Below are positions 971 through 58,145 of a stretch of DNA of 64,000 nucleotides, piece after piece. The DNA comes from Escherichia phage vB_EcoM_RZ. A model generated the notes under the pieces. The model was not told the origin of the DNA and did not search any database. It worked only from the letters and a program-made list of their open reading frames with translations. The position numbers were made by a program, and so were the translations under genes. Position 1 is the first letter of the stretch; every line of letters begins with the position of its first letter. The stretch lies in sequence record MW598459. The stretch is one strand, 5' to 3'.

Positions 971-2950
971 ATGGCTTTATTATCTCCGGGCATTGAGCTC
1001 AAAGAAACAACGGTCCAAAGCACTGTTGTTCGTAACGCGACGGGTCGTGCGGCGCTGGTTGGTAAATTCCAGTGGGGCCCAGCTTTCCAGGTAACTCAGA
1101 TTACAAACGAAGTTGAACTTGTTGATTTGTTTGGTGGTCCGAATAATGAAACAGCAGATTACTTTATGAGTGGGATGAACTTCCTGCAATATGGTAATGA
1201 CCTCCGTACTGTACGTGTTGTTAACCGTGACGAAGCTAAAAACGCATCCCCGATTGCTGGCAATATTGAAACTACCATTGTAACTGCTGGTACAAACTAT
1301 GCTGTCGGTGATGTTATTCAGGTTAAACACAACCAGACTGTTGTTGAACCAGCTGGCCGTGTGACCAAGGTCGATGTTGATGGTAAAATTCTGGCAATCT
1401 TTATTCCTACCAATAAGATTATTGCATTTGCTAAAACTATTAATCAGTATCCTAATTTGGGCAGTGCATGGACTGCAGAAGTTACGACCACTTCTTCCGG
1501 TGTATCTGGTACCATCACTGTCGGGAAAATTGTTACCGATTCTGGCATTCTGTTGACTGAAGCAGAAAACAGTGAAGAAGCAATTACTTCTCTGGAATTC
1601 CAGGCATCATTGGCAAAATATGCAATGCCGGGTGTTGTTGCTCTTTATCCTGGTGAAATTGGTTCGACTCTTGAAGTTGAAATCGTATCCAAAGCTGAAT
1701 TTGAAAAAGGCGCAACTGCAAATCTGGATATTTTCCCCGGTGGTGGTTCCCGCGCTTCTATAGCTCGTGCAGTGTTTAACTATGGTCCTCAGACCGAAAA
1801 CCAATATGCAATTATCGTTCGCCGCGATGGTGCAATCGTCGAAAACGTTGTTTTGTCTACTAAGCAGGGCGAAAAAGATGTTTATGGTAATAACATTTAC
1901 CTGGATGACTACTTTGCAAAAGGTACTTCCAACTACATCTATGCAACATCTCGCAACTGGCCTGTAGGCTTCAGTGGTATCATCAATCTGTCTGGTGGTA
2001 TTTCTGCAAACGATAAGATTACCGCTGGTGATTTGATGCAAGGTTGGGACCTGTTCGCTGACCGTGAAGCTCTGCATATCAACCTGCTTATCGCTGGTGC
2101 TTGTGCTGGTGAAGGTGATGCGACCGCTTCCACTGTTCAGAAGCACGTAGTTTCTATTGCTGACGAACGTCAGGATTGCTTGGCATTCATTTCCCCGCCG
2201 AAAGGTCTGTTGGTTAACGTTCCTCTGACCCGTGCAGTGGATAACCTGATTGACTGGCGTACAGGTGCTGGTGCATTTGATACTGATAACATGAATATCA
2301 GCACGACTTATGCAGCGATTGATGGCAACTATAAATATCAGTATGATAAATATAACGACGTTAACCGTTGGGTTCCTCTGGCAGCTGATATGGCTGGACT
2401 GTGTGCTCGTACTGATGATGTTTCTCAGCCTTGGATGTCTCCGGCAGGTTATAATCGTGGTCAGATTCTGAACGTTCTGAAATTGGCTGTTGAACCACGT
2501 CAGACCCAACGTGACCGCATGTATCAGGAAGCTATCAACCCGGTTGTTGGTTTCGCAGGTGGTGATGGTTTTGTTCTGTATGGTGATAAGACTGCAACTA
2601 AAGTTCCATCTCCGATGGACCATATCAACGTTCGCCGTCTTACGAATATGCTGAAGAAAAATATCGGTGACGCATCCAAATATAAACTGTTTGAGCTTAA
2701 CGATAACTTCACTCGTGCATCATTCCGTATGGAAACTTCTCAATACTTGGATGGTATTCGTGCGCTCGGTGGCATTTATGAAGGTCGTGTGGTTTGTGAT
2801 ACTACTAACAACACCCCGGCGGTTATTGACCGAAATGAGTTTGTTGCTAGCATTTATTATAAACCTGCCCGCAGTATTAACTATATACAGCTTAATTTCG
2901 TTGCCACTAGCACTGGTGCTGATTTCGATGAGCTGATTGGGCCACAATAA
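971..2950 (+). CDS. 18: Tail sheath protein gp18
   Basis: 659 aa, same length as T4 gp18; N-terminus MALLSPGIELKETTVQS matches T4 gp18; position after gene 17. Confidence 0.95.
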   Translation: MALLSPGIELKETTVQSTVVRNATGRAALVGKFQWGPAFQVTQITNEVELVDLFGGPNNETADYFMSGMNFLQYGNDLRTVRVVNRDEAKNASPIAGNIETTIVTAGTNYAVGDVIQVKHNQTVVEPAGRVTKVDVDGKILAIFIPTNKIIAFAKTINQYPNLGSAWTAEVTTTSSGVSGTITVGKIVTDSGILLTEAENSEEAITSLEFQASLAKYAMPGVVALYPGEIGSTLEVEIVSKAEFEKGATANLDIFPGGGSRASIARAVFNYGPQTENQYAIIVRRDGAIVENVVLSTKQGEKDVYGNNIYLDDYFAKGTSNYIYATSRNWPVGFSGIINLSGGISANDKITAGDLMQGWDLFADREALHINLLIAGACAGEGDATASTVQKHVVSIADERQDCLAFISPPKGLLVNVPLTRAVDNLIDWRTGAGAFDTDNMNISTTYAAIDGNYKYQYDKYNDVNRWVPLAADMAGLCARTDDVSQPWMSPAGYNRGQILNVLKLAVEPRQTQRDRMYQEAINPVVGFAGGDGFVLYGDKTATKVPSPMDHINVRRLTNMLKKNIGDASKYKLFELNDNFTRASFRMETSQYLDGIRALGGIYEGRVVCDTTNNTPAVIDRNEFVASIYYKPARSINYIQLNFVATSTGADFDELIGPQ

Positions 2951-2992
2951 GACTTTACTTCTGATTTAACTTGGGTTATAATGCGCGTATAA

Positions 2993-3000
2993 TATAAATA
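2993..3000 (+). promoter_or_regulatory. T4-type late promoter TATAAATA upstream of the HNH gene
   Basis: Exact TATAAATA 18 nt upstream of the GTG start at 3018. Confidence 0.5.
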
Positions 3001-3017
3001 CGCGCAAGGATTTACAA

Positions 3018-3623
3018 GTGATTATTTCTAAATTTGTTGAAGTTAAAATACGAAATCATGCAAAATGGTGGAGTGAATACTTAGGTAAAACTCTAACATA
3101 CCATGATGTAATTTCTGTTCCAGTTGAACAAATGCCAGATAATAGTAATAAAAAGATTGAGTGTTCCTGTGATGAATGTGGGGTACATTTTGAGCGCGGC
3201 ATTCAGCTGCTTCGTCGTGTTGATAAACATTTATGTAAAGCATGTTCAAGAAAAGATATTGGACAAAAGAATGTTATTGCGCAAGGTGGTGTACCAAGAC
3301 CATGGCAACGCGGTGAAAAACATCATAGCTGGAAGGGTAATAAGCGCGAATTCTATTTGTATGCTCAACGCGTTCATGCATTGACAAGAGCAAAACATCT
3401 AAAGAATATTTGGTCAACATGGGAAAATGCAGATAAGATAGGAAAATGTGGAGAAGATGGTGCATATCAACTTGACCACAAAGTTTCTATTGCATATGGA
3501 TTTTATAATCACATACCAGAGACTGTTATCGCTTCGCTCAACAATTTAGAAATAGTCACTTGGGAATCTAATAGGTCCAAAGGAAAATCAAATAGTATTG
3601 ACTTATGGGATATATTATCCTGA
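3018..3623 (+). CDS. Free-standing HNH homing endonuclease (GTG start) inserted between genes 18 and 19
   Basis: 201 aa ORF; N-terminal CxxC...CxxC zinc-finger-like motif (ECSCDECG...LCKACS); GEKHHSWKG motif; C-terminal HNH-like motif (QLDHKVSIAYGFYNHIPETVIASLNNLEIVTWESNRSKG); AAGGA ribosome-binding site before the GTG; T4 has no gene at this position. Confidence 0.7.
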   Translation: MIISKFVEVKIRNHAKWWSEYLGKTLTYHDVISVPVEQMPDNSNKKIECSCDECGVHFERGIQLLRRVDKHLCKACSRKDIGQKNVIAQGGVPRPWQRGEKHHSWKGNKREFYLYAQRVHALTRAKHLKNIWSTWENADKIGKCGEDGAYQLDHKVSIAYGFYNHIPETVIASLNNLEIVTWESNRSKGKSNSIDLWDILS

Positions 3624-3647
3624 CAGTAAATGTAATTAAGCAGTAAA

Positions 3648-3700
3648 CCGTAGAACCATTATACAATGCTATAAATAAAAGCATATCATCGGTTCTACGG
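3648..3700. repeat. Inverted repeat with 10 bp arms (CCGTAGAACC / GGTTCTACGG) enclosing a 33 nt loop that carries promoter-like elements
   Basis: Arms at 3648-3657 and 3691-3700 are perfect reverse complements; the loop contains TATAAATA on the plus strand (3670-3677) and TATAAT plus a TGCTTTT box on the minus strand. Confidence 0.55.
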
Positions 3701-3758
3701 ACTCCTCAGAGCTCCTCCAGCGACCTAAATACATTTATTGATGAATCATATTACCTAG

Positions 3759-3766
3759 TATAAATA
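3759..3766 (+). promoter_or_regulatory. T4-type late promoter TATAAATA upstream of gene 19
   Basis: Exact TATAAATA about 50 nt upstream of the gp19 ATG at 3819. Confidence 0.6.
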
Positions 3767-3818
3767 CATGCATCAGGGACGCGTTCGCGCGACCTGTGTC
3801 TATAAAGAGGATTCCTTA

Positions 3819-4310
3819 ATGGAGTTGACCGATATCACACGCGCTTTCGAATCCGGCGACTTTGCTCGCCCTAACCTGTTCGAAGTCGAAATCCCATTCC
3901 TGGGTAAAAACTTTGCTTTCCATTGTAAAGCAGCCCCGATGCCTGCTGGCATTGTAGAAAAAGTTCCTGTTGGTTACATGAACCGTAAAATCAACGTTGC
4001 GGGCGACCGTACATTTGATGACTGGACTATTACGATTTATAACGACGATGCTCATAAAGTTCGTCAAGCAATTGTTGATTGGCAAAATCTGTGTCACGGT
4101 ATGACTAACGAAATCACCGGTGCAGCTCCTGCTGATTATAAGAAAACCGCTACTGTCCGCCAGTTCCATCGTGATGGCAAGACCGTTACGAAAGAAGTTG
4201 TTATTACCGGCATGTGGCCAACCAACGTTGGGGAAGTCCAGATGGATTGGGACTCCAATAACGAAATTGAAACGTTCGAAGCGACGTTCGCAATTGACTG
4301 GTGGGAATAA
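3819..4310 (+). CDS. 19: Tail tube protein gp19
   Basis: Translation from the internal ATG (MELTDITRAFESGDFARPNLFEVEIPF...) matches T4 gp19; AAAGAGGA ribosome-binding site 8 nt upstream; the upstream in-frame ATG at 3768 lies inside the promoter region. Confidence 0.9.
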   Translation: MELTDITRAFESGDFARPNLFEVEIPFLGKNFAFHCKAAPMPAGIVEKVPVGYMNRKINVAGDRTFDDWTITIYNDDAHKVRQAIVDWQNLCHGMTNEITGAAPADYKKTATVRQFHRDGKTVTKEVVITGMWPTNVGEVQMDWDSNNEIETFEATFAIDWWE

Positions 4311-4311
4311 G

Positions 4312-4319
4312 TATAAATA
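4312..4319 (+). promoter_or_regulatory. T4-type late promoter TATAAATA upstream of gene 20
   Basis: Exact TATAAATA immediately after the gp19 stop. Confidence 0.55.
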
Positions 4320-4327
4320 AAGTTATT

Positions 4328-4345
4328 ATGAGGCTTCGGCCTCAT
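4328..4345 (+). other. Stem-loop (ATGAGGC-UUCG-GCCUCAT) between genes 19 and 20
   Basis: 7 bp stem with UUCG tetraloop; not followed by a T-run, so more likely an RNA stabiliser or attenuator than a strong terminator. Confidence 0.45.
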
Positions 4346-4367
4346 TTCCCAAACTTCGGAGACTCTA

Positions 4368-5942
4368 ATGGCAGGTTTTAATACAATACTAAATTTTCTT
4401 AAGCCTTGGGCTAAAGAAGATGAACAAGAATATAAGCAACAAGAAAAAAATAATTTAGAGTCAATGACCGGGCCGAAGTTTGATGATGGGGCTCGCGAAA
4501 TTGAGTCACAAGAACAAAACGTCCCGTATAATGCATTGATGCAACAGATGTTCGGGAGCAATGAACCTGAAGTAAAAAATACCAGGGAATTAATTGACAC
4601 CTACCGCAACTTACTAAATAATTATGAAGTTGATAACGCAGTGCAAGAAATTGTGTCTGATGCTATCGTTTTTGAAGACGGTAAAGATGTTGTAGCTCTT
4701 AACCTTGATGCTACCGAATTTAGTCAGAAAATTAAAGACCGAATCCTCGAAGAATTTTCGGAAGTCAATAACCTCCTTAATTTCGAGCGCAAAGGTTCTG
4801 ACCACTTTAAACGTTGGTATGTGGATTCTCGAATTTTCTTCCACAAAATTATCAACCCATCAAAACTTAAAGATGGAGTTCAAGAACTTCGTCGCCTTGA
4901 CCCAAGACAAATCCAGTTCATCCGTGAAATCGTTACACGCATGGAAAACGGTACAAAAATTGTCGACGGTTACAGAGAATATTTTGTATACGATACTGGC
5001 CATGAAAGTTATTGTGCCGATGGTCGTATATATGAAGCAGGTACTAAAATAAAAATTCCTCGTGCGGCGATTGTATATGCGCATTCTGGATTACTTGATT
5101 GCTGCGGCAAGAATATCATCGGATACTTGCAACGAGCAATTAAACCTGCAAACCAATTAAAACTATTAGAAGATGCTTTAGTCATTTATCGTATAACTCG
5201 TGCTCCAGACCGCCGAGTCTTTTATATCGATACCGGGAATATGCCGTCCCGTAAAGCAGCAGCACACATGCAACATATTATGAACACGATGAAAAACCGT
5301 GTCGTATATGATGCAACTACGGGTAAAATCAAAAACCAACAGCACAACATGTCAATGACGGAAGACTATTGGTTGCAACGTCGTGATGGTAAAGCAGTCA
5401 CTGAAGTTGATACACTCCCGGGTGCACAAGGCATGTCGGATATGGACGATGTTCGCTGGTTTAAGAACAACCTATATCAGGCTCTCCGAATTCCATTATC
5501 TCGTATCCCTAATGACCAAAACAGTGGTGTTATGTTTGATGCGGGCGCGACAATTACTCGCGATGAATTGAATTTCTCTAAATGGATTCGACAGCTACAG
5601 AATAAATTTGAAGAAGTTTTCCTCGACCCACTTAAAACCAACCTTATCCTGAAAAAAATTATTTCAGAAGAGGAATGGGAAAAGGAACTAAATAATATTA
5701 AAGTTACGTTCAACCGTGATAGCTATTTCACTGAAATGAAAGATGCAGAAATCATGGAACGCAGAATCAATATGCTAACGATGGCTGAACCGTTTATCGG
5801 TAAATATATTTCGCATCAAACGGCTATGAAGGATTTCCTCCAGATGTCTGATGAAGAAATTAATCAAGAAGCTAAGCAAATTGAATTGGAGTCCAAAGAG
5901 GCTCGTTTCCAAAACCCTGAAGAAGAAGAAGAGGATTTCTAA
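4368..5942 (+). CDS. 20: Portal vertex protein gp20
   Basis: 524 aa, same length as T4 gp20, with extensive identity (e.g. ...[34 protein letters not shown]...); GGAG ribosome-binding site. Confidence 0.95.
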
Positions 5943-8140: not shown

Positions 8141-9700
8141 ATGAAAAAGAATGCATTAGTTCAAAAATGGTCCGCTCTGCTGGAAAACGAAGCTCTTCCG
8201 GAAATCGTTGGTGCTTCTAAACAAGCTATCATCGCTAAAATCTTTGAAAACCAGGAACAAGATATTCTGACCGCTCCTGAATACCGTGACGAAAAAATCT
8301 CCGAAGCATTTGGTTCTTTCCTGACCGAAGCTGAAATCGGTGGTGACCATGGTTATGATGCTACCAATATTGCTGCTGGCCAGACCTCTGGTGCAGTAAC
8401 TCAGATTGGGCCGGCAGTTATGGGTATGGTTCGTCGTGCTATCCCGCATCTGATTGCGTTTGATATTTGTGGCGTACAGCCTCTGAACAACCCGACTGGC
8501 CAGGTATTTGCACTGCGTGCAGTATACGGTAAAGACCCTGTCGCTGCTGGTGCTAAAGAAGCTTTCCATCCGATGTATGCTCCGAACGCTATGTTCTCTG
8601 GTCAGGGCGCTGCTCAGACTTTTGAAGCACTGGCTGCAAGCAAAGTTCTGGAAGTTGGTAAAATTTATTCTCACTTCTTCGAAGCAACCGGTTCTGCACA
8701 CTTCCAGGCTGTTGAAGCTGTAACTGTTGATGCTGCTGCTACCGATGCTGCTAAACTTGACGCTGCTGTTACCGCTCTGGTTGAAGCTGGTCAGCTGGCT
8801 GAACTGGCTGAAGGTATGGCTACCTCCATCGCCGAACTGCAAGAAGGTTTTAACGGTTCCCAGGATAACCCGTGGAACGAAATGGGCTTCCGCATCGACA
8901 AACAAGTTATCGAAGCTAAATCCCGTCAGCTGAAAGCAAGCTACTCCATCGAACTGGCACAGGACCTCCGCGCTGTTCACGGTATGGATGCTGATGCCGA
9001 ATTGAGTGGTATTCTGGCTACCGAAATTATGCTGGAAATCAACCGCGAAGTTATCGATTGGATTAACTACTCCGCACAGGTTGGTAAATCTGGTATGACC
9101 AACACCGTTGGCGCTAAAGCTGGTGTGTTTGACTTCCAGGACCCGATTGATATCCGTGGTGCTCGTTGGGCTGGTGAAAGCTTCAAAGCTTTACTGTTCC
9201 AGATTGATAAAGAAGCCGCTGAAATCGCTCGTCAGACCGGTCGTGGTGCAGGTAACTTCATCATCGCTTCCCGTAACGTAGTTAACGTGCTGGCTGCTGT
9301 TGATACTTCTGTTAGTTATGCTGCTCAGGGTCTGGGTAAAGGTTTCAACGTTGACACCACTAAAGCTGTGTTCGCTGGTGTACTTGGTGGTAAATACCGC
9401 GTATACATCGACCAGTATGCTCGTGCAGATTACTTCACCATCGGTTACAAAGGCGCTAACGAAATGGATGCTGGTATCTACTACGCACCATATGTTGCAC
9501 TGACCCCGCTGCGTGGTTCTGACCCGAAAAACTTCCAGCCGGTTATGGGCTTCAAAACCCGTTACGGTATCGGTATCAACCCGTTTGCTGACCCTGCTGC
9601 TCAGGCTCCGACCAAGCGCATTCAGAACGGCATGCCGGACATCGTTAACAGCCTTGGCTTGAACGGTTACTTCCGCCGCGTATATGTTAAAGGAATTTAA
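8141..9700 (+). CDS. 23: Major capsid protein gp23
   Basis: 519 aa (T4 gp23 is 521 aa); strong match to remembered T4 gp23 throughout. Confidence 0.97.
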   Translation: MKKNALVQKWSALLENEALPEIVGASKQAIIAKIFENQEQDILTAPEYRDEKISEAFGSFLTEAEIGGDHGYDATNIAAGQTSGAVTQIGPAVMGMVRRAIPHLIAFDICGVQPLNNPTGQVFALRAVYGKDPVAAGAKEAFHPMYAPNAMFSGQGAAQTFEALAASKVLEVGKIYSHFFEATGSAHFQAVEAVTVDAAATDAAKLDAAVTALVEAGQLAELAEGMATSIAELQEGFNGSQDNPWNEMGFRIDKQVIEAKSRQLKASYSIELAQDLRAVHGMDADAELSGILATEIMLEINREVIDWINYSAQVGKSGMTNTVGAKAGVFDFQDPIDIRGARWAGESFKALLFQIDKEAAEIARQTGRGAGNFIIASRNVVNVLAAVDTSVSYAAQGLGKGFNVDTTKAVFAGVLGGKYRVYIDQYARADYFTIGYKGANEMDAGIYYAPYVALTPLRGSDPKNFQPVMGFKTRYGIGINPFADPAAQAPTKRIQNGMPDIVNSLGLNGYFRRVYVKGI

Positions 9701-9720
9701 TCCTAGATTAAATTAAATAG

Positions 9721-9751
9721 AAAGGGACCCTTGAGGTCCCTTTCTTGTTTT
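9721..9751. terminator. Bidirectional intrinsic terminator (GGGACC-loop-GGTCCC flanked by A- and T-runs)
   Basis: 6 bp GC stem at 9724-9729 / 9735-9740, followed by TTTCTTGTTTT; A-run upstream allows function on the minus strand too. Confidence 0.7.
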
Positions 9752-31506: not shown

Positions 31507-31577
31507 TTTATTCTCCAGTTGTTTTCATTTGTTGGTACAGGTCTATAATATCATAACCTGTACCAAAGTAAACTGTT

Positions 31578-54188: not shown

Positions 54189-57100
54189 ATGGCCGATATT
54201 TTAAAACCAGCATTCAGAGCAACATCCGGTCTCGATGCTGCTGGTGAGAAAGTCATTAATGTCGCAAAAGCTGATTACTCAGTTTTATCAGACGGCGTTA
54301 ACGTAGGTTTCTTTATAGAAGAAAACACAATTCAACAATATGATGCGACGCGCGGATACAAAAAGAACTTTGCGGTTATTAATGATAACCGTATTTGGGT
54401 TGCTCAACGTGATATTCCGGCACCAGCTGGAGCATTTACCCCTCAGTATTGGTTAGCAACTCGTACTGACCCTAAATGGGAAACTGTTGCATCTCCAACT
54501 CGTCAGCTTAGCTCCGGGGAATTTATCGCAGTCGACTCAGCTGCAAGCTTTACCACATTTACATTGCCTCCGAACCCGACTGATGGTGATACCATCGTTA
54601 TTAAAGATATCGGCGGTAATACCGGTTATAATGAAATTAAAGTTCAATCGAGCAATGTGCCTGGTCAAGGTAACCAAAAGATTGTTCGCTTTGGTAATCA
54701 GTATTCAGAAGTTTTAATTACCAAACCATTCTCTTATAACATGCTTATCTTTTCAAACCGCTTATGGCAATTTTGGGAAGCAGGTAACGAAGAACGTGGT
54801 ATCAGAGTAGAACCGTCGACCGGACGTTTCCATGCACAAGCTGGCGACTTTATTATGCGTCGTTATACAACTGGTGCACCGATTACTTTCATTCTTCCTA
54901 AGTATGCAAACCAGGGTGATATTGTCAAATCTGTTGATATCGATGGTATGGGACCAACGTTCCACCTGATGGTTGAAACCTTTGACACTAGTTCCAGTCT
55001 TGATAAAGCTGGTCAGCATCAAATGGAATTCCGTACCACAGGTGATGGTTTCTTCGTTTATGATGCTGCCGAAAAACTCTGGCATGTTTGGGACGGTGAT
55101 TTTAAAACTCGTCTGCGCGTTATTCGTGACAGCGTTAAACTTTTACCAAACGAAAGCGTCATTGTATTTGGCGAAGATAACTCAACTCCGGCAACGATTA
55201 ATATCGATTTACCGACTGATGTTTTACAAGGTGACATTGTTAAAATTGCATTGAACTATCTCCGTAAATCGCAGACTGTTAATATAAGAGCTGCTGTTGG
55301 CGATAAGATTGCATCTGACATTAAATTGCTGCAATTCCCTAAACGTTCCGAGTATCCACCAGATACAACTTGGGTGTTGGTTGATTCATTGACCTTTAAT
55401 GGCAACATCAGTTATACTCCGGTTATTGAATTATCATATGCAGAAGATACAGTGTCTGGAACAAGTTATTGGGTTGTCGCTCAGAACGTCCCGACTGTCG
55501 AACGAGTTGACTCATTAAATGATTCCACGCGCGCACGTCTTGGTGTTATTGCTCTGGCAAACCAGACTCAGGCAAACGTTGACCATGAAAATAACCCAGA
55601 GAAAGAACTTGCAATTACCCCTCAGACTTTGGCCAACCGTGTTGCTAAAGAGAACCAACGAGGTATTGCCAGAATCGCAACGACTGCTCAAGTAAATCAG
55701 AACAGCGATTTTGCATTTGTTGATGATGTAATTATTTCTCCGAAAAAACTCAATGAACGTACGGCAACAGAAACGAGACGTGGGCTCGCAGAACTCGCCA
55801 CACAGCAAGAAACCGATGCAGGTGTAGATGATACCACAATTATCACTCCGAAGAAACTACAAGCGCGCCAGGGCTCAGAATCGCTATCTGGTATTGTAAC
55901 TTACGTTTCAACAACCGGTGCAACTCCTGCTGCTTCGCGTGAATTAAATGGTACAAACGTTTATAATAAAAATACGGTTAATCTGGTTGTTTCTCCGAAA
56001 GCTCTTGACCAGTACAAAGCTACTTACACCCAACAAGGTGCGGTTATTCTTGCGGTTGAAAGTGAAGTAATTGCTGGTACTTCTCAATCTGGATGGGCAA
56101 ACGCAGTCGTTACTCCAGAAATGTTACATCGCAAAACTGCTCTTGATTCCCGTATCGGTTTAATCGAGATTGCAACTCAAGTGGAAACAGATGCAGGAAC
56201 CGATTATACCAGAGCTGTGACTCCTAAAACGTTAAATGACCGTAAAGCATCAGAAACGTTAACCGGCATAGCCGAGATTGCTACGCAATCAGAATTTGAT
56301 ACTGGAACTGATGATACTCGTATCTCAACTCCATTAAAAATTAAAAATAGATTTAATAATACTGCTCGTACTTCTGTTAATGCATTAAGTGGTTTAGTAG
56401 AAACAGGGACGCTCTGGGACCATTATAGCCTGAATATTCTTGAAGCAAATGAGACTCAGCGTGGTACAGCAAGATTAGCAACTCAGGGTGAAGTCAATAC
56501 CGGCACTGACGATAAAACAATCGTTACTCCGCTTAAATTGATGTCGAAAAAAGCCACTGAAAATGCCGAAGGTATTGTTCGCATCGCGACAAACGCAGAA
56601 GCAACAGCAGGCACATCAAAAGTCTTGGCCATCAGTCCGTCAGCGCTGAAATATATTGCACAAACGGAAACAACCTGGGAAGCATCTGAAACCCTACGTG
56701 GATTTGTTCGTTTATCTTCTGGTACAGCTACTTCGGCTGCAACTACAACGACTGGTGCAGGATTTACATATGCAAATGGTGTGTATACTCCGGACCCAAG
56801 TAAACTGGTTAGCTATTCAAAATCTGGTTATGCAGTTTCACCTTACGAATTAAACCGCGTATTGCAAAACTTCTTACCGATAAATGCGATGGCTGTTAAT
56901 GCTGAAAAACTGGATAACCTTGATTCGACCCAGTTTATTCGTCGTGATATTGCTCAGACTGTTGAAGGTGTGTTAACTCTTACTAAACAGACAAATATAT
57001 CTGCTCCGGTTGTATCGACGAGCACTGCAGTGTTTACTGATGTAACGGCTGGCACTTCGACGTTCGGAACTGTGAACGTTGTTAACGGAACTAACAAGTG

Positions 57101-58145
57101 GAAAATCACCGCTCCTTCCACCGGAACGACAATGACTATTGGCGATACGACTAACGTATTGACATTAAACACCGCCTCGGGTAATGCTGCTGTACTGAAC
57201 AACCTTAGCGCCGGAAATGATGTTCAAGCCAAAAATAATTACGTTCTAAATGGTCGTACTATCGCAACCACAACGGGTGAAGCTTCTGGTGCAACTCTGG
57301 CTCTGGGTGATAACTCGCAGAATTTAGTGCTTAAAACTCTTGATGCTGGTAATATCATAGCAAATGGTGGCGGTGCATTTAAAGTCCTGACCGAGAAAAA
57401 CGCTGTTGAGATTGTAGATAGAAACTTTGTTAACCAAGGCGGTGATACAATGTCTGGTGTGCTCCATGTGAATGCTCCGGTCCGTGTATTCGGTACGAAA
57501 CCAAGTCTTATCGCACAAGCTCCGACTGCAGATACTGTTGGCTTCTGGTCTGTCGATATCAATGATGAACCGACTTATAGTCAGTTCCCTGGTTATTGGA
57601 CAATGAAGTTAAAACGTCAGGTAAACATTGATACAGTTCAAACTAAACCTGCTGGGGTAACTGATGAAGTTTGGAATGCTTCTGGTTGGTTAACTGAAAA
57701 TGGAACTTTCGCCTCGCCTGTTATTCGTTATCGTAATGACGATGGTACACTCGGTGATGAAGTATTAGGTAGCTCTGGCCAAAAACTGCGCGGAACCTGG
57801 TTTGACTATTCGGTTCGTGATAAACAAATTAAATATCCTGGTACATTAACTCAGTTTGGTAATACGCTGGATTCATGCTATCAAGATTGGGTTTGTTATC
57901 CAACTGGATTGAACGGTGGTACTATTCGTTATACTCGTACATGGCAGAAAAATAAATCTGCATGGACGACTTTCGCAATGGTTTACACCGCGGATAACCC
58001 TCCGTCTGCAGAGGATGTTGGTGCATTACCGGCCGACAACACAACAATGGGGAACTTAACCATTCTCGATTGGTTGCGTATCGGTAACGTGCGCATCATC
58101 CCAGACCCGACCACTAAATCCGTTAAGTTTGAATGGGTTGAATAA
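54189..58145 (+). CDS. 34: Long tail fibre proximal subunit gp34
   Basis: 1318 aa (T4 gp34 is 1289 aa); repetitive beta-rich fibre sequence; position after rnh. Confidence 0.9.
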   Translation: MADILKPAFRATSGLDAAGEKVINVAKADYSVLSDGVNVGFFIEENTIQQYDATRGYKKNFAVINDNRIWVAQRDIPAPAGAFTPQYWLATRTDPKWETVASPTRQLSSGEFIAVDSAASFTTFTLPPNPTDGDTIVIKDIGGNTGYNEIKVQSSNVPGQGNQKIVRFGNQYSEVLITKPFSYNMLIFSNRLWQFWEAGNEERGIRVEPSTGRFHAQAGDFIMRRYTTGAPITFILPKYANQGDIVKSVDIDGMGPTFHLMVETFDTSSSLDKAGQHQMEFRTTGDGFFVYDAAEKLWHVWDGDFKTRLRVIRDSVKLLPNESVIVFGEDNSTPATINIDLPTDVLQGDIVKIALNYLRKSQTVNIRAAVGDKIASDIKLLQFPKRSEYPPDTTWVLVDSLTFNGNISYTPVIELSYAEDTVSGTSYWVVAQNVPTVERVDSLNDSTRARLGVIALANQTQANVDHENNPEKELAITPQTLANRVAKENQRGIARIATTAQVNQNSDFAFVDDVIISPKKLNERTATETRRGLAELATQQETDAGVDDTTIITPKKLQARQGSESLSGIVTYVSTTGATPAASRELNGTNVYNKNTVNLVVSPKALDQYKATYTQQGAVILAVESEVIAGTSQSGWANAVVTPEMLHRKTALDSRIGLIEIATQVETDAGTDYTRAVTPKTLNDRKASETLTGIAEIATQSEFDTGTDDTRISTPLKIKNRFNNTARTSVNALSGLVETGTLWDHYSLNILEANETQRGTARLATQGEVNTGTDDKTIVTPLKLMSKKATENAEGIVRIATNAEATAGTSKVLAISPSALKYIAQTETTWEASETLRGFVRLSSGTATSAATTTTGAGFTYANGVYTPDPSKLVSYSKSGYAVSPYELNRVLQNFLPINAMAVNAEKLDNLDSTQFIRRDIAQTVEGVLTLTKQTNISAPVVSTSTAVFTDVTAGTSTFGTVNVVNGTNKWKITAPSTGTTMTIGDTTNVLTLNTASGNAAVLNNLSAGNDVQAKNNYVLNGRTIATTTGEASGATLALGDNSQNLVLKTLDAGNIIANGGGAFKVLTEKNAVEIVDRNFVNQGGDTMSGVLHVNAPVRVFGTKPSLIAQAPTADTVGFWSVDINDEPTYSQFPGYWTMKLKRQVNIDTVQTKPAGVTDEVWNASGWLTENGTFASPVIRYRNDDGTLGDEVLGSSGQKLRGTWFDYSVRDKQIKYPGTLTQFGNTLDSCYQDWVCYPTGLNGGTIRYTRTWQKNKSAWTTFAMVYTADNPPSAEDVGALPADNTTMGNLTILDWLRIGNVRIIPDPTTKSVKFEWVE

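Follow-up and report, generated by a model that had tools for sequence, protein, structure and literature searches.

A conserved palindrome with opposing late and middle promoter-like elements in the gene 18–19 spacer of a Gaprivervirus phage

We analyzed a stretch of 64 000 nucleotides (nt) from Escherichia phage vB_EcoM_RZ (sequence record MW598459), here called the window, and focused on a palindrome at positions 3648–3700, which lies between the tail sheath gene 18 and the tail tube gene 19 and carries promoter-like elements of opposite direction in its loop. The phage is T4-like and belongs to the genus Gaprivervirus, and the window covers its structural and its early/middle region; over the queried stretch the window is 99.9% identical to Escherichia phage DK-13 and ~96% identical to vB_EcoM_VR7. 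The palindrome begins 24 nt past the stop codon of a 201-aa open reading frame (ORF) of HNH type, which some relatives carry and others lack (in the following HNH-plus and HNH-less). In total, 30 phage records match the region; 14 loci were retrieved for spacer comparison and 15 distinct Gaprivervirus spacer sequences were aligned. The locus is composed as follows (positions are those of the window):

971–2950, plus strand: tail sheath gene 18
2951–3628, plus strand: inserted HNH-family cassette, consisting of the ORF 3018–3623 with its own promoters and a hairpin, in place of ~14–17 nt of native spacer
3018–3623, plus strand: 201-aa ORF, 'gp19.1 hypothetical protein' in the VR7 and DK-13 annotation
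3645–3706, unstranded: conserved island of 62 bp (AAACC, palindrome, ACTCCT), common to HNH-plus and HNH-less haplotypes
3648–3657, unstranded: 5′ arm of the palindrome, CCGTAGAACC, identical in the 15 spacers; it contains the predicted minus-strand start at ~3651
3666–3684, plus strand: inner 5-bp stem ATGCT (3666–3670)/AGCAT (3680–3684) with a 9-nt loop
3691–3700, unstranded: 3′ arm of the palindrome, GGTTCTACGG, invariant in all relatives
3819 (ATG) to 4310, plus strand: tail tube gene 19
4368–5942, plus strand: portal gene 20

The program-listed ORF of gene 19 (3768–4310) opens at an ATG at 3768 and thus within the promoter/leader region. The true start is almost certainly the ATG at 3819, which is preceded by GAGGA at 3807–3811 and is the annotated start in all relatives. 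A scan of positions 2800–4500 against Rfam returned no relevant family, a literature search on VR7 and Gaprivervirus returned nothing addressing the gene 18–19 spacer, and a literature search for antisense or transcription start site transcriptomics of T4 returned nothing usable.

The two arms of the palindrome pair perfectly over 10 bp and enclose a loop of 33 nt (3658–3690), within which the inner stem encloses most of a late-promoter box; the arms, the loop and the loop motifs described in the earlier note, which was made from the sequence alone, are all in place. The region also folds more stably than shuffled sequence on either strand: for positions 3625–3725 we calculated −21.1 kcal/mol for the plus strand (z −3.1) and −30.8 kcal/mol for the minus strand (z −3.6). 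Behind the hairpin the RNA continues with ACUCCUC on the plus strand and with UUUAC on the minus strand. The elements predicted to start transcription in and around the palindrome are the following:

3658–3686, minus strand: MotA-type middle-promoter-like site with TATAAT (3663..3658), a 13-bp spacer and the box ATATGCTTTT (3686..3677); predicted start ~3651, leftward
3670–3677, plus strand: distal late promoter box P1, TATAAATA, with a predicted start at ~3683; invariant in 15 distinct relatives
3759–3766, plus strand: proximal late promoter P2, TATAAATA, ~60 nt upstream of gene 19
3774–3796, plus strand: hairpin with a UUCG tetraloop, with which predicted P2 transcripts begin; the Shine–Dalgarno (SD) sequence GAGGA and the ATG of gene 19 come next

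The T4 late promoter is defined by an 8-bp box (PMC2988020). We found this box, TATAAATA, 20 times in the window, compared to 4.0 expected occurrences, and all 13 boxes within the late cluster are on the plus strand. As described for late promoters (PMC2988020), P1 is followed by an A+T-rich stretch, AAAGCATATCAT, and is oriented as the late genes. From these sequence features we take P1 to be a real late promoter, in addition to the proximal P2, whose position is common to JS98-like phages and to the related loci L045 and L083. Predicted P1 transcripts lack the 5′ arm of the palindrome. Among the 16 plus-strand boxes of the window, 4–5 are associated with an inverted repeat. The hairpin at the start of predicted P2 transcripts has the loop UUCG here, UACG in several relatives (both of the UNCG type) and UUCA in two; a few changes in its stem give a wobble or a mismatch.

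For the minus strand, the geometry of MotA-dependent promoters is known from T4: a box WWWTGCTTtA lies 12 ± 1 bp upstream of an excellent −10 element, TAtaaT (PMC2988021). The box ATATGCTTTT agrees with this pattern in 9 of 10 positions (the last A is a T), the 13-bp spacer is within the canonical range and the −10 element is perfect, although the site fails the stricter pattern TGCTTNA. Scans for sigma-70 promoter and terminator consensus sequences gave no match at the palindrome on the minus strand. The pattern TGCTT-N14–16-TATAAT, which the palindrome matches with a spacing of N15, occurs six times in the window compared to 0.22 expected occurrences, in each case on the minus strand; genome-wide, 12 such sites are on the minus strand and a single one on the plus strand. 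The polarity of the site is that of all early/middle genes, in line with the polarity rule for middle promoters (PMC2988020). The opposing promoter-like elements and the antisense middle promoter proposed in the earlier note are thus borne out at the level of motifs. The DK-13 genome encodes AsiA, a MotA homologue and gp55. Moreover, a minus-strand GTATAAT is kept at a distance of 147–159 nt from the ATG of gene 19 in three lineages (Gaprivervirus, JS98-like phages and the loci L039/L044), with nGCTn in the same register in each of them and a GTATAAT background of 0.14 per kb. Judging from these motifs, we lean slightly towards the view that the minus-strand promoter fires in vivo. Its predicted leftward transcript would be antisense to the HNH ORF, as the earlier note had it, in this phage; in most relatives, which are HNH-less, it would instead oppose the 3′ end of gene 18. 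Within the last ~100 nt of gene 18 (loci L019, L049 and L066), the conserved gp18 peptide NYITLNFVAT encodes minus-strand strings resembling TGCTAC-N-TATAAT. These coding strings mimic a relaxed middle-promoter pattern, and searches with a relaxed MotA box therefore yield coding-driven false positives here.

Four of the six TGCTT-N14–16-TATAAT sites in the window are located just upstream of minus-strand ORFs, while the remaining two precede no gene. Besides the palindrome site, the only site of this kind in a late-gene context is the following:

56422–56447, minus strand: homologue of the T4 promoter P34i, TGCTTCAAGAATATTCAGGCTATAAT, inside a 1318-aa plus-strand ORF (54189–58145), the gene 34 homologue

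This site matches P34i both in sequence and in position, its place in the gene 34 homologue being codon ~742, compared to codon 734 in T4. In T4, P34i serves oriG/ori(34), a replication origin, as its middle promoter; it reads against the tail-fibre gene 34 and expresses no gene (PMC3016281; rep_origin in NC_000866).

Next to the motifs, the comparison of related phages is informative. The 201-aa ORF is present in 5 of the 30 records (DK-13, two records of VR7, TH57 and DCP80). The remaining 25 have only a spacer of ~200 nt between genes 18 and 19; homology to these genomes ends at the gene 18 stop codon and restarts at position 3629. Both arms are identical across the 15 distinct spacers, 11 of which come from HNH-less phages (VR20, VR25, SP18, PSD2001, P479 and others), where the palindrome is found ~35 nt past the gene 18 stop codon. 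From this we conclude that the palindrome is native to the gene 18–19 spacer and that the HNH cassette was inserted upstream of it; since the palindrome is present without the HNH gene, it did not evolve for the control of that gene. The palindrome adjoins the HNH indel, the left junction of which is the gene 18 stop codon, and there is no second copy of the element at the indel. Throughout the DK-13 genome (172 kb) there is a single copy of the arms and the loop core, and the palindrome was found at one place per genome in the 30 genomes. The suggestion of the earlier note that the element might be a transplanted promoter module does not agree with these data, and a mobile or transplanted cassette is refuted by the HNH-less genomes, which carry the element at the same place.

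Across the 15 spacers the 62-bp island varies only at 3666 (A/G), at 3669 (C/T/G), by a 2-nt indel at 3686–87 and at 3701 (A/G), whereas its 5′ flank is variable. This natural variation spares both −10 boxes and the MotA-like box. The changes A3666G and C3669T in the inner stem lead to G·U and U·G pairs in plus-strand RNA; the G at 3669 in phage M719 breaks the inner-stem pair. A metagenome search with the loop alone returned one new contig (OBRI01000011.1) and two already known IMG/VR genomes. The new contig contains the sole arm variant that we found, CCGTAGAATC, in which a C-to-T change at 3656 gives a U·G wobble in plus-strand RNA and a C·A mismatch in minus-strand RNA or DNA. The 3′ arm lies outside the core elements of both promoters, and its conservation is for this reason best explained by pairing.

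The palindrome is not the whole of the predicted structure. By extending the folded region to the flanks we obtained a rod of ~115 nt (3624–3740), in which the palindrome forms the tip and which is closed by a basal helix:

3624–3634, plus strand: 5′ strand of the basal helix, CAGTAAATGTA; the HNH cassette ends with its first 5 nt, after which native spacer follows
3707–3738, unstranded: 32-nt block of equal length and unrelated sequence in HNH-plus and HNH-less haplotypes
3730–3740, plus strand: 3′ strand of the basal helix, TACATTTATTG, located mostly within this haplotype-specific block

Folding of positions 3624–3745 gave a minimum free energy of −31.1 kcal/mol (z −5.7), and none of 200 shuffled sequences was as stable; for the HNH-less spacer we obtained a z of −3.9. 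The 32-nt block is complementary to its own 5′ flank in each haplotype: in the window CAGTAAATGTA pairs with TACATTTATTG, while the HNH-less rod is closed by CTTAGAA/TTCTGGG, TTAATCA/TGGTTGA and TTATCATC/GATGATGA. When the flanks of the window sequence were shuffled, only 4–5 of 500 sequences folded as well with one flank shuffled and 19 of 500 with both; the corresponding numbers for the HNH-less phages are 1–32 of 500 over all three shuffles. Swapping the 3′ flank between the haplotypes costs 3–15 kcal/mol. The HNH insertion took away part of the old 5′ partner, and the replaced 32-nt block pairs with the new junction, seemingly in compensation for this loss. The sequence TTATCATCGCTTAG is the one lost in the HNH-plus haplotype. 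G·U pairs account for 17.7% of all pair cells of the HNH-less extended helices; together with the wobble-compatible variants of the inner stem and the single arm variant, this lets us lean weakly towards plus-strand RNA as the strand that folds. The z-scores give no common strand assignment, as the two haplotypes disagree.

We compared 55 related loci with a gp19 identity from 100% down to ~55%. The 18–19 spacer almost always holds a stable hairpin abutting a late-promoter box, often as two modules in tandem; examples are AGCCCC directly followed by TATAAATA and, in the T4-like locus L049, ATGGGCTA-TTTCGG-TAGCCCAT directly followed by ATAAATA. Such modules, found in T4-like, RB69-like, Aeromonas and Vibrio phage contigs, resemble the element studied here in their position and in the tandem arrangement, as with P1 and P2. 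The loci L045 and L083 share its layout, with two boxes, at −138 within a hairpin and at −60. However, the hairpins of other phages are short and G+C-rich, have a tetraloop and end just before the promoter box, whereas here the promoter lies inside a 33-nt loop, the 10-bp arms are of mixed A/T composition and the rod extends over ~115 nt. By this comparison the palindrome is a local, enlarged version of a common hairpin/late-promoter module. Among characterized systems, a late promoter inside a hairpin that sequesters the ribosome-binding site (RBS) is known for T4 I-TevI, I-TevII, I-TevIII, segB, Aeh1 mobE, e and soc (PMC2988022). P1 likewise lies within a hairpin, so that late transcripts would lack the 5′ arm and read-through transcripts could fold, but no 3′ arm occludes a downstream SD or AUG here, the 3′ arm being 119 nt upstream of the gene 19 ATG. 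With T4 MotA/AsiA middle promoters (PMC2988021) the minus-strand site shares the perfect −10 element, the 9/10 box, the 13-bp spacer and the polarity of the other strong sites, yet unlike them it lies among the late structural genes, is directed into one of these or into the HNH ORF and lacks a gene downstream. P34i/oriG of T4 is a parallel in this respect, as a strong middle-promoter motif without a gene and antisense to a late structural gene, although it differs in location and is neither embedded in a palindrome nor paired with a late promoter.

Building on the observed anatomy, nativeness, single-copy status, motif enrichment with strand bias, conservation and co-adapted flanks, we propose that the palindrome is the core of the native gene 18–19 control region, with divergent late and middle promoters and with a hairpin or rod that forms only in read-through RNA; we give this proposal an even chance of being correct. 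That the promoters fire, that the rod forms in vivo and that it has a function is what we infer from the observations. In this model, P1 (gp55-type, start ~3683, rightward) and P2 would feed gene 19 with rod-free messages, the P2 message starting with its own UUCG hairpin, while the MotA/AsiA-type promoter (start ~3651, leftward) would produce a non-coding antisense RNA at middle times. Both predicted starts are inside the palindrome, and RNAs initiated locally would therefore carry one arm, so that only read-through RNA has both. The latter, chiefly the late gene 18/HNH message, would fold into the rod and fill the intercistronic space, where the rod may separate the messages of genes 18 and 19 as a structural barrier, a stability or processing element or an insulator. 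The HNH-family mobile gene was inserted later, just upstream of the palindrome, in the stretch from the gene 18 stop codon to position 3629. Each part of this arrangement is known in kind; divergent late and middle promoters nested in a rod-capping palindrome are an arrangement that we have not seen described. Taken together, the observation reported in the earlier note is confirmed and its interpretation is supported in part.

Several points weigh against our proposal. Perfect inverted repeats with arms of at least 10 nt and a loop of 3–40 nt occur three times in the window, and first-order Markov simulations of the same size and composition gave 3.1 ± 1.7; at this chance level the palindrome alone is unremarkable, and the functional case must rest elsewhere. 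The plus strand has no U-tract behind the hairpin, and the terminator scan calls nothing at the palindrome. No credible minus-strand ORF was found downstream of the minus-strand site, which faces the HNH ORF or gene 18, and in T4 no middle promoter is mapped in the late cluster (75.4–109.8 kb). In the covariation analysis of the 11 HNH-less spacers the extended structure was 99.3% paired, but shuffles reached 99.2% (302 of 500), so that the result is not significant; nearly all variation within these sequences is one-sided wobble, and the core helix, which does not vary, gives no covariation signal. Finally, the rod is assigned its function by analogy. According to a first alternative, the island owes its conservation to one promoter or a pair of them, while the inverted repeat of 10 bp arose by chance and has no structural role in RNA or DNA. 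The chance rate of inverted repeats, the missing core-helix covariation and the shuffle control of the extended fold all agree with it, as do the JS98-like phages and L039/L044, which keep GTATAAT with different or weaker hairpins; in the JS98-like phages we found no positionally equivalent hairpin with compensated arms, and their spacers fold differently. However, the 3′ arm lies outside the promoter cores and is still identical in 10 of 10 positions across haplotypes whose next 32 nt are unrelated, each haplotype rebuilds the closing helix from different sequence, and the sole arm variant is compatible with a wobble pair. We regard an explanation by promoters alone as rather unlikely.

An improbable alternative assigns the minus-strand promoter to replication, as a second oriG-like R-loop origin of the T4 oriF/oriG type, at which the promoter would act together with A+T-rich DNA downstream of it and its transcript, held in a persistent R-loop, would prime early leading-strand synthesis. 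Such an origin would operate in Gapriverviruses and possibly in JS98-like phages and L039/L044, and the overlapping late promoter would then, after middle transcription has ceased, take over in an origin-off/late-on hand-over. P34i/oriG is likewise antisense to a late gene and gene-less and has its homologue in the window, the palindrome site has the motifs of a middle-mode promoter, and the 50 bp downstream of it (3591–3640) are among the 0.6% least stable in the window. However, this unstable DNA belongs to the last part of the inserted cassette, and its equivalent in the HNH-less phage VR20 is only at the 10–16th percentile. The melting criterion moreover fails to separate origin promoters, P34i included, from ordinary middle promoters in this genome, and the site is not near a switch of the transcribed strand. 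No T4 origin is known to map to genes 18–19, and no rep_origin is annotated there in T4.

A role at the level of DNA, in which cruciform extrusion or the binding of a dimeric protein would modulate the loop promoters, is still less probable in our view. The core of the palindrome does have perfect symmetry, and with DNA parameters the rod folds too (z −4.65), but the G·U pair cells of the HNH-less helices would be mismatches in DNA, arms 33 bp apart are unlike a usual dimer site, and no candidate binding protein is known. A loop of 33 nt also makes cruciform extrusion unfavourable.

Two further explanations have, in our judgment, a very small chance of being correct. As a transcription terminator, the palindrome would end the gene 18 message on the plus strand or the antisense RNA on the minus strand; the hairpin is stable and is followed on the minus strand by UUUAC or UUUCU, but the loop is large, the scan made no call and the lack of a plus-strand U-tract means that it is not a classical terminator. 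Alternatively, the palindrome could be the site that the neighbouring homing endonuclease recognizes or that confers immunity to it; it adjoins the insertion point, and the HNH-plus haplotype differs in loop positions and in the 32-nt block. However, neither the arms nor most of the loop differ between HNH-plus and HNH-less genomes, so that they cannot tell target from immune alleles, and genera whose spacers have nothing in common also carry the ORF family after gene 18, which suggests conserved coding sequence as the target.

We attach next to no probability to a translational switch of the I-TevI/e/soc type, in which different RNA folds would change access to the gene 19 RBS. This mechanism is marked by a late promoter that lies within a hairpin (PMC2988022), and in the predicted P1 transcript ACUCCUC does pair with the SD, which has an unpaired probability of 0.06 compared to 0.29–0.55 in the other transcripts. 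However, the distance of the 3′ arm from the ATG argues against it, and neither VR7 and TH57 (~0.5) nor the HNH-less phages (0.29–0.55) show this sequestration. Across 10 phages we observed no consistent difference in SD accessibility between transcript types. The duplex in which the 3′ arm set free in P1 transcripts would cover the gene 19 RBS has −19.5 kcal/mol and is in the 1% tail, but the effect is limited to this exact sequence and absent in nine relatives, and it was rejected. Of the regulatory switch suggested in the earlier note, RBS sequestration is the mechanism that was put to the test, and it failed.

A mobile promoter cassette similar to PeSL or PmSL elements, or a module carried in with the HNH gene, is equally hard to credit: PmSLs based on TGCTT boxes have been described (PMC4122927) and the element is a promoter plus stem-loop beside an indel, but genomes without the insertion have identical arms, the element is single-copy and it has no sigma-70 −35 element. 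The resemblance to PeSL/PmSL cassettes (PMC2839356, PMC4122927) is thus limited to a composite of promoter and stem-loop beside a presence/absence polymorphism. PeSLs are multi-copy and dispersed, occur in hyperplastic regions and combine early/middle promoters with terminator-like stems, whereas the palindrome is found once, in the core structural cluster, with or without the neighbouring ORF.

The cassette beside the palindrome deserves a closer description. Its 201-aa ORF belongs to the family phrog_5104, has no Pfam domain and is called 'hypothetical' in every record examined; it has a beta-beta-alpha-metal (HNH-like) fold with a His...Asn...Asn/His motif. The ORF is sporadic at one intergenic site among close relatives, as is the case for homing endonucleases. 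Members of the family occur at the 18–19 junction in at least 10 loci across genera (L003, L005, L013, L016, L022, L024, L025, L038, L046 and L050), and from their presence in several genera we conclude that this junction is an insertion hot spot. The control region of the cassette (2954–3017) contains two sigma-70-like promoters (2954–2982 and 2966–2993) and a 9-bp inverted repeat, TGCGCGTAT/ATACGCGCA (2982–3006), which overlaps a late promoter box at 2993–3000 and is directly followed by the SD AAGGA and a GTG start. This hairpin adjoins the RBS without covering it and in this resembles seg43(25) (PMC2988022).

Two members of this family show further peculiarities. In DCP80 (locus L005, PQ671644, 140 978 bp) the protein is only 54% identical, while in the last ~60 nt of the ORF and the flank behind it the identity to the window is 100%. 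This suggests an exchange of alleles by recombination within the ORF. The DCP80 record is ~30 kb shorter than those of its relatives and its annotation turns to minus-strand hypothetical ORFs right after the gene 19 start, suggesting a rearrangement or an assembly problem at this point. At locus L016 (IMGVR_UViG_2706795394_000001, 893-nt spacer) a more distant, 36%-identical family member replaces the entire native 18–19 spacer, and a TATAAATA box is located within the 3′ coding end of the ORF, 70 nt ahead of gene 19; mobile endonuclease genes that harbour the promoter of a host gene are described in the literature for segG and mobB.

Elsewhere in the window we recognized two more perfect palindromes with arms of 11 bp. 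At 31532–31566, TTGGTACAGGT and ACCTGTACCAA enclose 13 nt, and this loop, CTATAATATCATA, contains TATAAT. The other, at 9719–9745 (AGAAAGGGACC-CTTGA-GGTCCCTTTCT), is located 19 nt past the end of a 519-aa ORF (8141–9700), which by its position is probably the major capsid gene, and looks like a terminator or stabilizer hairpin. Short homology between the terminase gene 16 and gene 19 underlies the amplification of the gene 17–18 region in T4. A link of the palindrome to this homology was considered and rejected: we found only 9–10-mers expected by chance, none of which involves the palindrome.

If the antisense promoter proves active, the interest of the palindrome would go beyond the modest one it otherwise has. 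With both promoters firing, it would be a compact node at which MotA/AsiA-dependent middle and gp55-dependent late transcription use overlapping DNA in opposite directions. Our proposal, if true, would mean that a palindrome marks read-through RNA alone with a hairpin, which would be a simple case of insulating adjacent late messages. It would also show a role for gene-less middle promoters in late clusters, either in antisense RNA or in replication priming; oriG is the only characterized gene-less middle promoter in a late cluster. Independently of promoter activity, the locus illustrates that a free-standing endonuclease gene can insert beside a structured regulatory element, and the apparently compensatory replacement of the 32-nt block suggests that the RNA structure is under selection.

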